From: a virus
Lineage: Duplodnaviria; Caudoviricetes
Direction: 5' to 3' (one strand)
DNA length: 63,956 bases
IMG/VR virus record: IMGVR_UViG_3300010397_000008
Location: 1 to 63,956 of that record
The position numbers and the translations under genes are program-made. Positions 6,705 to 11,549 of the stretch are shown piece after piece. The notes beneath the pieces were generated by a model that saw only the letters and a list, made by a program, of their open reading frames with translations, was not told the origin of the DNA and made no database searches. The first letter of the stretch is position 1. Every line of letters starts with the position of its first letter.

Positions 6705-7063
6705 TGAATTGTCGCCATTTCCCGACGTATCCGCACTGTTCGTGCGATCCGGTGTCGTGCGTCATGCTGCGATCAACGGCGAATCCTGCCGGGCTTGAGG
6801 CACTACATTCGCCGCCAGCCGCGCAATCCGGCTGGCGGCCGATCGAGACCGCGCCGAAGGATGGAAAACACAAGCCGGTGCTGCTCCATGTCAATTGGGA
6901 GCCGCTGACCGTCGTAGGCTATTGGGGTGCAGCGTCGGACGTTGGCGAGTTCCAAAGCGATGAAGAGACGTGGCGGGTGCTTTGGGACCAAGCGCCAATC
7001 CGAGACGGCTATGACGAGCCGACGCATTGGATGCCGCTGCCAGAACCGCCGGCAGATGGCTGA
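6704..7063 (+). CDS. DUF551-like phage protein
   Basis: GWRPIETAPKDG...PTHWMPLPEPP. Confidence 0.8.
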   Translation: MNCRHFPTYPHCSCDPVSCVMLRSTANPAGLEALHSPPAAQSGWRPIETAPKDGKHKPVLLHVNWEPLTVVGYWGAASDVGEFQSDEETWRVLWDQAPIRDGYDEPTHWMPLPEPPADG

Positions 7064-7472
7064 CCATGACCCTCGCCCGCGCGTGCTCGACCACCCCGAA
7101 CCGGGGCTGTGGCTAATCCGCTGCTGCCCGCGCTGTCCGTGGGTGCCGGCGCGGATCGTCATGGTGCAGGTTTCGCACGAGCCAGGGCAGCCGGACAACG
7201 ACATGAGGGGCACCCGGTCGCCGTTTCTCGCCGCGTTCATCAGCGGCCAGCCGGTCGCGGTCAGCGACGTGTGGGGTCGGCGCGGGCGGATCATCACCCG
7301 TTCAGAATATGAACGAGCGGTCGCCGAGATCGCGGCGGCGGTGCGCGAGAACCGATATGACCCCCGTTGCGCCCCGTTCAAAGCCGTCGAGATAGAGAGT
7401 CTGCCGCTGCCGTTTCAGGAGGAAGCCGATGCCCGACGACCAAGCGCCGCCCGACGTAGGCATAGGGCATAA
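7056..7472 (+). CDS. Hypothetical phage protein
   Basis: PEPGLW.....RCPWVPARI motif; coupled to neighbours. Confidence 0.6.
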   Translation: MADHDPRPRVLDHPEPGLWLIRCCPRCPWVPARIVMVQVSHEPGQPDNDMRGTRSPFLAAFISGQPVAVSDVWGRRGRIITRSEYERAVAEIAAAVRENRYDPRCAPFKAVEIESLPLPFQEEADARRPSAARRRHRA

Positions 7473-8199
7473 TCAGCCTCCGCTTTCCGAGGTCTTGGCC
7501 GAAAACACCAAGCCACTGCGCGAGCGCGCGGAGGCGCTGATCGCGTCCGTCAACGCTGCCCGCATTGACAGCCCCGAAACCGCCGCTCAGGTCACCACGC
7601 TCGGCGGCATGCTGCGCGACCTGCGCGAGAAGGCCGAGGCGGCGCGCAAGGAGTCGGCCAGGCCGTTCGACGACGGCAAGGCGGCGGTACAGTTGGCCTA
7701 CGCGCGCGGTATCCTGGACCCACTCGACGCGGCGATGACCGCGTGCCGGAAGATGCTCGACGCATGGCGGGCGCAACTGGATGCTGCCGCCGCGGCCGAG
7801 CGCCGCAAACGGGACGAGGAAGCCGCCGAAGCCCGCCGTGTCGCCGAGGACGCCGAGCAGCGCCAACGTGACGCCGAAGCCGCGGGTGATCCCGGTGCGG
7901 CGATCAAGGCCGAGATGGAGGCGATGCAGGCCGCCGAGCGCGCTGAGAAGTTGGCGAGCGACGCCGGCACGATCCGGCCATCCGAGCCGATTCGTACCCA
8001 GACGGGGATGGCGTCGGCAGCGACAACCCGAGTTCCGACCGTGACGAATATTGGGCTATGCCTGCGATGGATGCTCGAAAATCAGTCTGCCGCGCTGATC
8101 GAGGCAATCAGCCCGCTCGTCGCTCGGCTGACGCGGGCGAAGGTCGAGATACCGGGCGTCGAGGTCAAGGAAGTGGCGGCAACGAGGTTCCGGCGATGA
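7429..8199 (+). CDS. Coiled-coil phage protein (recombination region)
   Basis: IGHNQPP start, E/A/R-rich coiled coil, C-terminal EIPGVEV. Confidence 0.7.
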   Translation: MPDDQAPPDVGIGHNQPPLSEVLAENTKPLRERAEALIASVNAARIDSPETAAQVTTLGGMLRDLREKAEAARKESARPFDDGKAAVQLAYARGILDPLDAAMTACRKMLDAWRAQLDAAAAAERRKRDEEAAEARRVAEDAEQRQRDAEAAGDPGAAIKAEMEAMQAAERAEKLASDAGTIRPSEPIRTQTGMASAATTRVPTVTNIGLCLRWMLENQSAALIEAISPLVARLTRAKVEIPGVEVKEVAATRFRR

Positions 8200-8402
8200 G
8201 TGCCCCGCGCCGTCTCCCGCTCAAGGCCGCGTTCATGCGTGCCGACGTTTGCGAGTACGGCTGCCCCGTCGTCATCATGTGCGATCAGGACGGCAACACG
8301 ATCGCCGAGGCCCATCTTATGCCCGAGCACGTCGAGGCGTTCGTTGCCCAGGTTCGCGATGCTGCCGAGGTCGGCGCGGCTAAGCGGAGGCCGGTGGCGT
8401 GA
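8196..8402 (+). CDS. Hypothetical protein
   Basis: ATGA-coupled ORF. Confidence 0.5.
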   Translation: MSAPRRLPLKAAFMRADVCEYGCPVVIMCDQDGNTIAEAHLMPEHVEAFVAQVRDAAEVGAAKRRPVA

Positions 8403-8516
8403 AGGTGATGCTGGTCGAGATCGGCTATCGCAAATACGTCGTGGAGCCGCGCGACGCGATCCTGCTGCTTGAAATCGCATCCCGCGTCATCGAGGTCGAA
8501 CAGAAGCATTACAAAG

Positions 8517-9296
8517 GGGAATTATATAGATGACTTCCTCGCGCGTTGAACGGATCGGCGATGCGACGCTGTATCTCCGAGACTGTCGGGATTGTATCCA
8601 GCAGATCGGGCTGGCACAGGAACGCGCCCCTGATTTAGCGGTCATTAGCGACCCGCCCTACGGCATGGATTTCGATACCGACAGCCGGCGCTTCACGGGC
8701 GGCACGATTCGGCGGGGAACAGGGAGGGACGATCGGTCCATCGCCGGCGACGCCGCCTCCTTCGATCCGGCGCCATGGCTCACCTTTGATGAGGTCATCC
8801 TCTGGGGCGCAAATCACTACGCGCAAAAACTGCCGATCGGCTCGACGCTGATCTGGCTCAAGCGCTATCAGGAGCATTACGGCAGCTTCTTGTCGGATGC
8901 CGAGATCGGCTGGCAGCGGGGCGGGCATGGGGTCTATGCGCTGCATGCGCCCGATAGCAGCGGCCGCCGGCGCCTGGAATTCACCGGCAGCGCGTTCGGA
9001 GATGAGACCGCGCATCCGTTCCAGAAGCCGATCGCGCTGATGGCCTGGTGTATCGAGCGCGTTAAAGGCCGTGCAATCCTCGACCCCTTCATGGGCTCCG
9101 GCACCACTGGCGTTGCCGCCCTGCGCCTCGGCCGCAAATTCATCGGTATTGAGATCGAAGAGCGCTGGTTCGATATCGCCTGCAGGCGGATCGAAGCGGA
9201 GGCAAACCAACCACGCCTAGCAATCGGCAGCGCACCGCCGCGACCGGCGGCTTTGGAGCCGATGCTGTGACCGAGGAAGTTAAATATATAATTCCC
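8517..9296. mobile_element. Non-autonomous IS1595-family-like cassette (ISNwi1-type ends) carrying a DNA methyltransferase
   Basis: 25-bp TIR GGGAATTATATA-(GATG/TTTA)-ACTTCCTCG; perfect 8-bp TSD TTACAAAG (8509-8516, 9297-9304); no transposase. Confidence 0.9.
8530..9270 (+). CDS. Orphan N4-cytosine/N6-adenine DNA methyltransferase (beta class)
   Basis: DPPY, HP.QKP, and DPFMGSGTTG motifs. Confidence 0.9.
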   Translation: MTSSRVERIGDATLYLRDCRDCIQQIGLAQERAPDLAVISDPPYGMDFDTDSRRFTGGTIRRGTGRDDRSIAGDAASFDPAPWLTFDEVILWGANHYAQKLPIGSTLIWLKRYQEHYGSFLSDAEIGWQRGGHGVYALHAPDSSGRRRLEFTGSAFGDETAHPFQKPIALMAWCIERVKGRAILDPFMGSGTTGVAALRLGRKFIGIEIEERWFDIACRRIEAEANQPRLAIGSAPPRPAALEPML

Positions 9297-9434
9297 TTAC
9301 AAAGAGGCGTGGCGGCAAGCCGCCGAGCAAGAGCCGTTTATCAGCGAGGCTCACTTGGTCAATTATGATCCGCTGGCGCTGCCGGAATTGCCCCAAGACC
9401 CCGTTGCCGCCGTACCCGTTACGGAGATGCCGTT

Positions 9435-9935
9435 TTGACCATCACCATCCTCCCGCCCGAGGCAGACCCGATCAAGACGCTGCGCACGATGGCAGCGTTC
9501 GGCATGGACGAGGGGCGCGGCATCGCCGAGATAAAGCGCGGCGACATCACGTTTACCGGCGTCAACGCGCAGCCGGTCATCGGCCTCGCGATCCTGTGCA
9601 AGACACCCGAAAAGACGCCGATCCCGATTTACGACGTGGCGACGCGCGGTGTCGAGGTCACGATGCTGGCCGATTGGCTCAAGGCGCGCGGGTTCGAGGC
9701 GAGCGCGTGCCGGTGGAACCGGAACCGAATAATCGGCCCCCCCAACTCTGCCGCTCATCGTCCTGCGTGGGAGCTTGTGACCGGCCCGGCCGATGTCCCG
9801 GCGATGCCGCCGGAGTTCCCACAAGGGCCGGCCATGAGCCAAATTGAGGTTGCAATGCGGCAAGCCGAATTGCAACGGCGCATCAACGAGATGCAGATGC
9901 GTGTGCCACCGTCATACGAGTGCGAGAGGAAATGA
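9435..9935 (+). CDS. Hypothetical protein
   Basis: TTG start coupled to the restored upstream gene. Confidence 0.55.
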   Translation: MTITILPPEADPIKTLRTMAAFGMDEGRGIAEIKRGDITFTGVNAQPVIGLAILCKTPEKTPIPIYDVATRGVEVTMLADWLKARGFEASACRWNRNRIIGPPNSAAHRPAWELVTGPADVPAMPPEFPQGPAMSQIEVAMRQAELQRRINEMQMRVPPSYECERK

Positions 9936-11260
9936 CCATGCCTGACGACGTGAAATCGCAGCAGATCGAGAAGCGCATAGACCGCGAGGTTGCGGGTGGA
10001 CTGTCCATCGTCAGCGGTGCCGGCACCATGACAATCGCGCCCCGCAACATGGGCGAGTTGATGGAGTTCGCGAAGCTCATGGCCGTGGCCGGCGACTGCA
10101 TCCGTCCAGCCTTTCGGGGCAATGCGGGCGCGTGCCTGTCGCTGTGCCTCCAAGCCTTCCGCTGGGGCGCGGACCCGTTCGCGGTCGCCAACAAGGCGTA
10201 TATCACCACCGGCAAGGCCGGGACGCAGATCGCCTACGAGGCGCAGCTTATCAACGCCATCGTCCACAACTCGCCGATGCTCGCGCGGCGCCTGCGGTCC
10301 CGATACGAAGGCGCCGGCCAGCAGCGCAAATGCATCGTCACCGGATGGGTGCGCGGCGAGGACGAGCCGTTCGAGTACGAGTCCCCGACCATCGCGCAGA
10401 TCGCCGTCAAAAACTCGCCGCTCTGGCAGGGCGACCCCGACCAGCAACTCGCGTACTACAGCACCCGCGCGTGGGCGCGGCGGTATCTGCCCGAGGTTCT
10501 GCTCGGCATCTATTCGCCCGACGAAGTGCAAGGCGAGGTCATCGACATAACGCCCGCACAGGGCACTATCCAGGAGGCGGCACGCGCCGATCTCACCCAG
10601 CCGATCCCGTGGGAGGTATTCGACGCCGCCGGCGAGGTCTACGAGTTCGAGATGTCCGATAAGGCCGTCGAGGCGTGCCGCAAGATACTGATCGCGAGCG
10701 CCGCCGACCCGGCGATGCTGGCGACGGCGTGGGAGAACAACGCCGCCTTCATCGTGTCGCTCGGGCAGGATGGGCTTGAAGATGACGCGCGGGCCATCGA
10801 GCGGCTTTACGCCGAACTGGCACCGAAGCAAGAGGTCGGTCATCCGGGACAGACCCCGGATGGTATGGCGGCGGCGTCCGTCAAAGGGGGGGAGGAAGCC
10901 ACGCCGGGCACGCCTCCCCCCGCCGAAGCCACAACCGATTCTCCGCCGGTGCAGCAAACACAGGAGGACGCGAATGGGATTGACGGCCCTGTGCCGGCGG
11001 GGGATGCCGCATCACGTTCGGAGCCGCCCGCTGATCTACTCGGCAACCCGCGCCCCGAGAACCTGACCGTCCCACTGCCGCGCAAACCCGATCTGGATCA
11101 CGTCGCCCGGCAACTGCTCGCGATGATCGCCGAGGCACCGGGCGACGCCTTGCGCCGCAACCGGATCAAGATGGCGAACGAAAGCGCCCTACTCGTCCTC
11201 AAGGCTGGCGCGGTCGAGCGTTACGACGAGGTTCAGGCGGCGCTCCACCGGGGCGCGTAG
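9932..11260 (+). CDS. recT: RecT-family single-strand annealing protein with a long C-terminal extension
   Basis: QAFRWGADPFAVANK...YEAQL...NSPLW..DPDQQLAY...R.WARRY.PEVLLGIY. Confidence 0.85.
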   Translation: MTMPDDVKSQQIEKRIDREVAGGLSIVSGAGTMTIAPRNMGELMEFAKLMAVAGDCIRPAFRGNAGACLSLCLQAFRWGADPFAVANKAYITTGKAGTQIAYEAQLINAIVHNSPMLARRLRSRYEGAGQQRKCIVTGWVRGEDEPFEYESPTIAQIAVKNSPLWQGDPDQQLAYYSTRAWARRYLPEVLLGIYSPDEVQGEVIDITPAQGTIQEAARADLTQPIPWEVFDAAGEVYEFEMSDKAVEACRKILIASAADPAMLATAWENNAAFIVSLGQDGLEDDARAIERLYAELAPKQEVGHPGQTPDGMAAASVKGGEEATPGTPPPAEATTDSPPVQQTQEDANGIDGPVPAGDAASRSEPPADLLGNPRPENLTVPLPRKPDLDHVARQLLAMIAEAPGDALRRNRIKMANESALLVLKAGAVERYDEVQAALHRGA

Positions 11261-11393
11261 CCGCGTAGTCGGCCAGCATCGCCGCCGCCCCCTCGATCCC
11301 TAGCCCTGCCGTCAGCCGAGCGCGATCGGTCGGCGGCAGGCGCATGATGAAGCGGATCGCCTCGGCGTGTGGCGGGCTCGTCAAGTCAGCCAT
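11199..11393 (-). CDS. Small hypothetical protein (paralog of the ORF at 12499-12735)
   Basis: Shared HAEA.RFIMRLPP..RARLTAGLGIEGAA. Confidence 0.5.
   Translation of the reverse strand: MADLTSPPHAEAIRFIMRLPPTDRARLTAGLGIEGAAAMLADYAATRPGGAPPEPRRNARPRQP
11284..11369. repeat. 86-bp imperfect direct repeat, copy 1 (copy 2 at 12617-12702)
   Basis: Ungapped alignment by eye with about 10 mismatches. Confidence 0.85.
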
Positions 11394-11549
11394 TTAGCAA
11401 CCGTAGGGGTCACGGCCCACGATGCGGCCCACGCCAGCCCCACCGCGCCCGCGATCACCATCCTCGGGCAATAGCGTCAGCAGAATCGGGATCGCGAAAC
11501 AGAGCGCCACGCCGACCAGAATCCACCAGCAGGAGCGCGGGGTTCTCAC
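11394..11549 (-). CDS. Small membrane protein
   Basis: WWILVGVALCFAIPILLTLL transmembrane segment (not in the ORF track). Confidence 0.45.
   Translation of the reverse strand: MRTPRSCWWILVGVALCFAIPILLTLLPEDGDRGRGGAGVGRIVGRDPYGC

Follow-up and report, generated by a model that had tools for sequence, protein, structure and literature searches.

How does a single DNA methyltransferase gene come to stand in the middle of another gene within a string of phage recombination genes? The locus that raises this question lies in IMG/VR virus record IMGVR_UViG_3300010397_000008, whose 63,956 bases constitute the window analyzed here; the record is a complete virus with direct terminal repeats (100% by CheckV). 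At positions 8517–9296 of the window, a 780-bp unit that encodes a DNA methyltransferase and no transposase is bounded by imperfect inverted repeats and a perfect 8-bp duplication. We conclude that an IS1595-family transposase acting in trans very probably placed this repeat-open reading frame (ORF)-repeat cassette in a small phage gene, apparently a dispensable one, at an AT-rich 8-mer.

The terminal inverted repeats occupy positions 8517–8541 and 9272–9296. Each is 25 nt in length, and 22 of the 25 positions are complementary (88%). The left repeat reads GGGAATTATATAGATGACTTCCTCG on the plus strand, whereas the right repeat, on the minus strand, reads GGGAATTATATATTTAACTTCCTCG in the inward direction. 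Among 41 inverted pairs detected in a scan of positions 8300–9500, this pair is the longest. Exact matches to the outer 12-mer GGGAATTATATA occur in the window only at both ends of the cassette; with up to two mismatches allowed, three matches were found against 0.71 expected, the third of which lies at position 2351 and contains two mismatches. The 8-mer TTACAAAG abuts the unit on both sides, at 8509–8516 and, in an identical copy, at 9297–9304. The original prediction, which was made from the DNA sequence alone, had described a 780-bp unit with 25-bp repeats matching at 22 of 25 positions and an 8-bp duplication, and all of these are present where it had placed them. With IS (insertion sequence)-type inverted repeats, a passenger, no transposase, and a target duplication, the unit fits the structure of a mobile insertion cassette.

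Removal of 8517–9304 by script generates an 83-aa ORF with its stop at 9436. The GTG of this restored ORF overlaps the stop of an upstream 68-aa ORF (GTGA, 8399–8402), and its TGA overlaps the TTG start of a downstream 166-aa ORF (9435–9438), which bears out the earlier claim of an 83-aa gene coupled to both neighbors. The interrupted gene now consists of a truncated 5′ part on the plus strand (8399–8533; 39 native and five repeat-encoded codons) and a 3′ remnant on the same strand (9304–9438; 44 codons plus stop, with no start codon). A HMMER search of 1.84 billion representative proteins with the 39-aa N-terminal half returned two proteins, the truncated ORF of the window itself and an uninterrupted protein of 88 aa designated P0002. 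The N-terminal half is 61% identical to residues 4–41 of P0002 (E 2e-4 against the whole library), and the C-terminal half is 55% identical to residues 40–70 (E 1e-10, pairwise). In a global alignment of the restored 83-aa protein with P0002, 44 of 88 columns are identical, and the junction residues YK lie opposite YK with no gap. Matches of the two halves to unrelated proteins had been proposed as evidence against an insertion; instead, both halves align colinearly to this single protein, which indicates that they derive from one gene split exactly at the duplicated 8-mer.

The same ends are found on autonomous elements. An exact scan of viral contigs with the two-part repeat revealed five further loci, designated L002–L006. 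L003 (1679 bp; duplication TTAAATTG) and L006 (1721 bp; imperfect duplication with two mismatches) each encode a 305-aa transposase together with small passenger ORFs. L002 (338 bp; duplication CTAAATTT) has perfect repeats and no family match, L004 (516 bp; duplication AAATAAAA) contains only a PF05869 Dam methyltransferase, and L005 (529 bp; duplication CATTTTAT) contains only a DUF1643 gene. The transposases of L003 and L006 match PF12762 (E about 1e-44) and the zinc ribbon PF12760, and that of L003 also matches NF033547 (E 4.3e-60, above cut-off). The left repeat of the window cassette is identical at all 25 positions to the transposase-distal repeats of L003 and L006, while the right repeat is of the transposase-proximal type and is identical to the proximal repeat of L003 at 23 of 25 positions. 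The search for IS1595 elements with matching ends, which the original prediction had suggested, was thus successful. Because of these matches, the 22/25 asymmetry of the window repeats represents the normal left/right difference of the family rather than decay. The end GGGAATTAT fits ggnnatTAT, the consensus of the ISNwi1 subgroup in ISfinder, which also lists a catalytic signature specific to that subgroup; the cassette is thus a putative ISNwi1 member. No match to PF12762 is present in the whole of the complete phage, and the window cassette is therefore non-autonomous.

In total, 11 elements with these ends bear a transposase (L003, L006, L022, L042, L049, L076, L081, L104, L107, L108, and L125). 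The ten full-length transposases match PF12762 (E 1e-41 to 1e-45) and PF12760, and the one in L081 is truncated. Among plasmid-borne transposases, the best matches reach only 44% identity and bear no annotation more specific than "IS1595 family transposase". L003, L006, and L022, autonomous copies with identical ends, are located on phage contigs of 37–53 kb; a co-resident phage or prophage could consequently have supplied the transposase just as readily as the host chromosome. The original prediction had invoked a host transposase acting in trans. Assignment to the IS1595 family is supported by the identical ends, whereas the source need not be the host.

A relaxed 22-position end pattern identified 60 stretches in viral contigs and 70 in contigs from a collection with one genome per species. 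The latter derive from bins labeled Acidobacteriota, Methylophilaceae, Oligoflexia, Dehalococcoidia, Micrococcaceae, and others. Among 57 paired ends, assigned by script in the fetched loci, 37 are flanked by perfect 8-bp duplications, five by duplications with one mismatch, and 15 by sequences with at least two mismatches, some of which lie in A/T runs where the boundary may slip by one base and some of which are probably mispaired. A search for partners of 84 unpaired ends gave a clear partner only for L046, most of the loci being too short. Exclusion of L085, which is the same phage as the window, and of three exact duplicates (L023, L031, and one copy in L128) left 38 non-redundant elements of 161–3693 bp, 23 from viral and 15 from genome contigs; L006 is outside this set owing to the two mismatches in its duplication. 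The duplications of the 38 elements are 82% A+T compared to 46% in their flanks. Thus, the same ends with 8-bp duplications recur across dozens of unrelated loci.

Nine elements are shorter than 350 bp and resemble miniature inverted-repeat transposable elements (MITEs), some of them multi-copy in a single Methylophilaceae or Terriglobia bin. ORF-less derivatives of 163–192 bp were observed in the Methylophilaceae-labeled bin (L073, L078, L083, L091, L095, L098, L115, L120, and L130) and in the Terriglobia-labeled bin (L086, L093, L094, L102, and L128). In these bins, the family has multiplied in MITE-like fashion within bacterial chromosomes. Two phage contigs each harbor two different elements of the family: L002 and L058 lie on a 75.7-kb viral contig with a G+C content of 0.63–0.66, as rich as that of the window phage, and L007 and L029 lie on a 102-kb viral contig. 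In L019 (636–728), three repeat-like ends in both orientations fall within 93 bases, which suggests nested or abutting insertions.

The cargo of the window cassette is a 246-aa DNA methyltransferase encoded at 8530–9270 on the plus strand (PF01555 N6_N4_Mtase, E 1.4e-18; phrog_67, E 1.3e-36). This ORF is the sole long ORF of the cassette and the sole one there with a family match, in agreement with the earlier claim of one intact methyltransferase whose ATG lies inside the left repeat. The ATG corresponds to left-repeat positions 14–16, the first 2–4 residues (MTSS) are repeat-encoded, and the TGA finishes 1 base short of the right repeat. DPPY (motif IV; residues 41–44) precedes FMGSG (motif I; near residue 187), which is the order of motifs in beta-class enzymes. 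The nearest solved relatives are CcrM (6pbd, E 2e-15), in an alignment that takes in both motifs, and DpnA. The complete phage encodes only this one PF01555 gene. No partner nuclease or second gene was found inside the cassette, to which that screen was confined. The methyltransferase has thousands of homologs, many of them on phage-sized contigs, and the repeat pair was found around the gene in none of 30 viral loci that contain relatives. Homologs that are 60–84% identical begin MSRIEH, MTVRVEH, or MSRVEH, and the window protein begins MTSS-RVERIG; the repeat has taken over the native start almost exactly at codon 2. In L159 (1699–1723), a repeat-like end with four mismatches lies approximately 330 nt downstream of a distant relative of the window methyltransferase (38% identity). 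This end may mark another insertion beside a resident methyltransferase.

The placement of the cargo start codon is a property of the repeat. In repeats of the distal type (...TATAGATGACTTCC), ATG at positions 14–16 is directly preceded by an in-frame TAG and overlapped by TGA in another frame. The left repeat of the window cassette accordingly contains TAG-ATG-A, in which the start codon is accompanied by stops in both other incoming frames. Owing to this TAG and TGA, a host ORF that enters in two of the three frames terminates at or just before the cargo start. The incoming frame in the window uses the repeat TGA: the stop of truncated ORF 8399–8533 overlaps the cargo ATG (ATGA), the junction at which the original prediction had the truncated gene stop. 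The repeat ATG is present in 11 of the 76 ends of the 38 elements, two of these being both ends of L002 and hence not all independent, and in all 11 cases it opens a frame of at least 97 codons. For comparison, 481 of 2259 ATGs in the same loci (21%) do so. Among these frames are those of unrelated proteins that share the beginning MT(S/P) or MI (the window methyltransferase and ORFs of L058, L028, L106, L104, and L108).

Termination signals are likewise found in the repeats. The 28 transposase-less elements together contain 25 principal ORFs that reach 45 codons or more; 11 of these terminate at a TAA located five bases from the distal terminus, with repeat-encoded tails such as ...GKLSI, and three others terminate at another repeat TAA, 13 bases from the terminus. 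In five transposase-bearing elements (L104, L108, L022, L049, and L042), the proximal repeat contains TTGACT or TTGACA, and TATTAT, TATATT, TATCTT, or TAGACT stands 17 nt further on, a promoter-like arrangement that would serve the transposase. The window cassette lacks this −35 box, and no sigma-70-like promoter site was found in 7000–11500; the cargo is therefore probably transcribed by read-through from the exonuclease/RecT gene string in which it lies.

The transposase-bearing elements exhibit two further features. In L003_L and L006_R, the inner half of the repeat (GTACTTGACTTCC) recurs internally, approximately 50–70 nt from the transposase-proximal terminus; this second copy may act as an additional binding site for the transposase or provide the −35 box of its promoter. 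In L003 (9067–10719, minus strand), L006 (192–1919, plus strand), and L022 (from the left repeat), the repeat ATG begins an antisense ORF that spans the entire element and comprises 550, 575, and 739 codons, respectively; the ORF in L003 is codon-aligned with the transposase and passenger. No such ORF was found in L042, L049, L076, L107, or L125, the repeats of which lack the ATG. These antisense ORFs may reflect chance plus shared ancestry or an overlapping gene.

What do the other cassettes carry? The original prediction had suggested that the same ends might surround other cargo, and sibling cassettes with such cargo were indeed found. A census of the 19 transposase-less elements of at least 432 bp among the 38 revealed a DNA methyltransferase as the only recognizable gene in seven, all in viral contigs. 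Four families are represented: PF01555 (window, L038, and L051), PF05869 Dam (L004, and a fragment in L017), PF05063 MT-A70 (L032; phrog_359), and phrog_757 (L009). The remaining elements carry DUF1643 (one cassette, L005), TnpB (one cassette, L025), SieB with other genes (one element, L071), a transposase remnant (one element, L099), ORFs with no family (six elements: L012, L024, L028, L040, L058, and L068), or no clear ORF (two elements: L092 and L121). Three transposase-bearing elements also carry methyltransferases: L049; L081, which encodes an 807-aa PF02384 enzyme; and L042, in which a 170-aa ORF contains DPPY and has weak PHROG matches only. The 947-bp cassette L009/L023/L031 and the transposase-bearing 1675-bp L049 share the same 213-aa passenger (phrog_757 DNA methyltransferase, E 1e-65), which indicates that a cassette can arise from a transporter IS (tIS) through internal deletion. 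Together with the identical ends on autonomous elements, this common passenger suggests that the cassettes are mobilized in trans.

Other cargo is more varied. The 1398-bp cassette L025 (2921–4318), flanked by the perfect duplication ATTTAATT, encodes a 390-aa TnpB (PF01385, PF07282, and PF12323), that is, an IS605-type RNA-guided nuclease gene within the ends of an unrelated transposon; the same end and duplication are present in L052. L071 (5316–7422), a transposase-less element of 2107 bp with duplication CAAAAAAG, lies in an Acidiferrales-labeled bin and carries a homolog of the superinfection-exclusion protein SieB (PF14163, E 2e-13) together with further small ORFs. In L005 (941–1469), DUF1643 is the sole gene (PF07799, E 5e-40; phrog_3230), and its C-terminal residues and stop are contributed by the repeat; the protein is a candidate for a phage-beneficial function. 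Searches of Pfam, PHROGs, and NCBIfam gave no match for the ORFs of L012, L028, L040, L068, L106, L002, and L008, and an ESM Atlas look-up of the L040 ORF yielded no usable lead.

The window cassette is situated inside a co-oriented recombination module (7429–11260) composed of an exonuclease-like gene, three small ORFs without a family, and a RecT-family protein. All genes of this string are on the plus strand. The exonuclease-like gene encodes 256 aa (7429–8199; phrog_10477, E 3.5e-23) and the upstream neighbor of the interrupted gene 68 aa (8196–8402; no Pfam or PHROG match). The downstream neighbor, a 166-aa gene with a TTG start (9435–9935; no Pfam or PHROG match), is preceded by its own GGAG 8 nt upstream and hence need not rely on the broken translational coupling. 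The RecT-family recombinase gene follows (9920–11260; PF03837, E 8e-13), and its 446-aa product has a long C-terminal extension. A blastn search of 50,697 phage records with 7400–11300 recovered only short methyltransferase-motif stretches in nine records. Neither the 166-aa protein nor P0002 led to related loci in viral or metagenome contigs, and RecT led to none in viral contigs.

We propose the following sequence of events. An IS1595-family DDE transposase, supplied in trans from the host or from an autonomous element in a phage or prophage sharing the cell, would recognize both 25-nt ends and insert the cassette into the AT-rich 8-mer inside the 83-aa gene of the exonuclease/RecT string, duplicating the 8-mer. 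The passenger is a beta-class PF01555 methyltransferase whose start codon is supplied by the transposase-distal repeat. Read-through from the phage operon would probably transcribe it, and ribosomes that terminate on the truncated ORF would probably reinitiate at the overlapping ATGA. Methylated phage DNA would then be shielded from host restriction.

Several observations weigh against this account of the insertion. No empty-site DNA allele was recovered from viral or metagenome contigs or from one sequencing run, and the related phages with an empty site anticipated by the original prediction were not found among those viral and metagenome contigs. The run, a soil metagenome in the form of Logan contigs that is probably the source sample, contained the filled site only and no joint, which is no evidence against an empty allele because contigs drop rare variants. 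There is no second copy of the exact cassette other than L085, a 63,977-base contig that is 100% identical to the window over 8000 bp. An IS1595 transposase was found neither in the phage nor in the 4.2-Mb genome bin, labeled Ramlibacter sp., in which L085 is filed; this bin is incomplete, its binning is unverified, and assignment of the phage to it is weak evidence for the host. P0002 is a singleton. The C-terminal half of the interrupted gene gave no match to longer proteins, and the E-value of 2e-4 for the N-terminal half refers to the whole library while that for the C-terminal half is pairwise only. Finally, when orientation was assessed roughly from the longest ORFs, cargo and the flanking ORF upstream of it pointed the same way in nine of 15 cases, a proportion that is not informative.

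The missing empty site would also suit a reading in which chance accounts for both the inverted repeats and the 8-bp direct repeat or the gene arrived by recombination, in the manner of a moron or a homing-type gene. We regard the probability of this as negligible. Ends of 22–25 nt flank 37 elements with perfect 8-bp duplications at unrelated loci, 11 elements encode IS1595 transposases, and the interrupted gene is split exactly at the duplicated 8-mer and colinear with an intact protein; coincidence and recombination are effectively refuted. Another reading accepts the insertion and treats it as an old, immobile relic with ends decayed to 22/25, the methyltransferase having become a domesticated phage gene. 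In favor of this, the G+C content of the cassette (0.62) is near the 0.66 of the flanking phage DNA, which is not so for most sibling cassettes; moreover, only one copy of the cassette was found and no cognate transposase lies nearby. We nevertheless judge a relic to be quite improbable. The three repeat mismatches are accounted for by the asymmetry of the family, as seen in the distal ends of L003 and L006 and the proximal end of L003, no mismatch separates the two duplicated 8-mers, and the target gene is still open and alignable on either side of the cassette.

The benefit conferred by the cargo is a separate matter. It is fairly likely that the enzyme methylates phage DNA and thereby counters restriction, a role suggested by the finding that phage-borne cassettes repeatedly carry a methyltransferase, from one of four families, as their sole cargo. 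A genuine IS1595 derivative might instead be maintained for other reasons, such as CcrM- or Dam-like epigenetic control of phage or host genes, evasion of methylation-sensing defenses, or a selfish gain for the element itself. The regulatory orphan methylase CcrM is the nearest solved relative, and sibling cargo extends to DUF1643, TnpB, SieB, and six ORFs with no family. We consider such a benefit unlikely, inasmuch as the similarity to CcrM is limited to shared catalytic motifs (residues 158–221) and four families in seven of 19 cassettes, all viral, fit selection for methylation of phage DNA better than they fit a single regulatory circuit.

An IS1595 cassette bearing a putative counter-restriction gene has implications beyond this phage. 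According to PMC3429520, phage genomes are believed to tolerate insertion sequences poorly. The present case illustrates a route by which one is tolerated, and probably selected, in a phage: reduced to two repeats and one ORF, it costs 788 bp and delivers a methyltransferase straight into an operon. Four methyltransferase families, phage-borne autonomous partners, and ends in genome bins labeled with many different phyla together suggest a general spread of counter-restriction genes among unrelated phages by transposition instead of homologous recombination. It is tempting to speculate further that IS1595-type ends give phages a gene-cassette system comparable to that of integrons but based on transposition. 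Single ORFs would lie between 22–25-nt repeats, one of which carries the start codon and the other a TAA that terminates the cargo, with a −35 box in the transposase-proximal repeat, and such cassettes would preferentially shuttle methyltransferases and other counter-defense genes among phages of very different hosts. We offer this extension tentatively, as a possibility about which we are more doubtful than convinced. If it holds, the cargo of L012, L024, L028, L040, L058, and L068 and the DUF1643 gene would be candidate anti-defense genes, and the repeat start codon would couple cargo to whichever gene is interrupted. The 22-nt end motif could be used to harvest small phage ORFs with no assigned family as anti-defense candidates, and the repeat-encoded start and stop codons provide an experimentally testable example of translation signals in transposon ends.

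How does the window element compare to known systems? Two families alone, IS1595 and IS66, include tIS according to the TnCentral preprint (10.1101/2021.05.26.445724), and an excerpt on ISApl4, an IS1595-family member of the IS1016 subgroup, reports A/T-rich 8-bp repeats (PMC12561309). The elements described here share the hallmarks of IS1595 tIS: same-ended relatives encode PF12762, PF12760, and NF033547 transposases, the ends begin with GG, the 8-bp duplications are AT-rich, and copies of 1.6–3.7 kb carry passengers beside the transposase. The window element differs in that it lacks a transposase, contains the cargo start codon inside a repeat, and is located in a phage. IS1595-family insertion sequences and their tIS forms were reportedly treated by Siguier, Gagnevin & Chandler in 2009.

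Mobile insertion cassettes (MICs) were defined for IS231, as outlined in part of PMC3129680. They likewise comprise IS-type repeats around a passenger, lack a transposase, generate a target duplication, and are presumed to be mobilized in trans by a cognate IS. The window family is IS1595 rather than IS4/IS231 and is found in phage; in addition, its cassettes contain single ORFs with repeat-encoded start and stop codons, and DNA methyltransferases dominate the cargo. MIC231 of IS231 is said to have been described in Bacillus cereus by De Palmenaer et al. in 2004. The window element is classified with the IS1595 tIS and the MICs, as a derivative and not as an autonomous IS.

Two further comparisons concern the cargo. 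Orphan PF01555 methyltransferases of phages, which are CcrM/DpnA-like and beta-class, share with the window enzyme the DPPY and FxGxG motifs, their beta-class order, and the PF01555 and phrog_67 matches. The relatives of the window enzyme in all 30 viral loci are devoid of the IS repeat pair; the window copy alone is packaged in a cassette with an IS-encoded start. Transposase-less restriction-modification (R-M) units with inverted repeats and 8-bp duplications were reported in Xanthomonas oryzae and Neisseria gonorrhoeae by Furuta, Abe & Kobayashi 2010, who could not exclude a trans-acting transposase as the inserter (PMC2853133). Like the window cassette, these units have genes for DNA modification enclosed by imperfect inverted repeats, with a target duplication of 8 bp. 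They are chromosomal, contain whole R-M systems or larger gene sets, and are assigned to no IS family, whereas the IS family and autonomous partners were identified for the window cassette, which contains a lone methyltransferase and resides in a phage replicon. Methyltransferase passengers of IS1380-family tIS are mentioned in a section of PMC11891212. Our literature search, outside which lay the 2009 IS1595 paper and ISfinder, revealed no account of IS1595-type methyltransferase cassettes in phages or of repeat-encoded starts; an earlier description is possible. Against this background, what appears to be new is the occurrence of methyltransferases of four families in seven of 19 cassettes and the supply of translation signals by the repeats. 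The single insertion is clean and can be classified; it is the pattern at the level of the family, single-ORF phage cassettes that shuttle methyltransferases with built-in translation signals, that deserves a specialist's attention.

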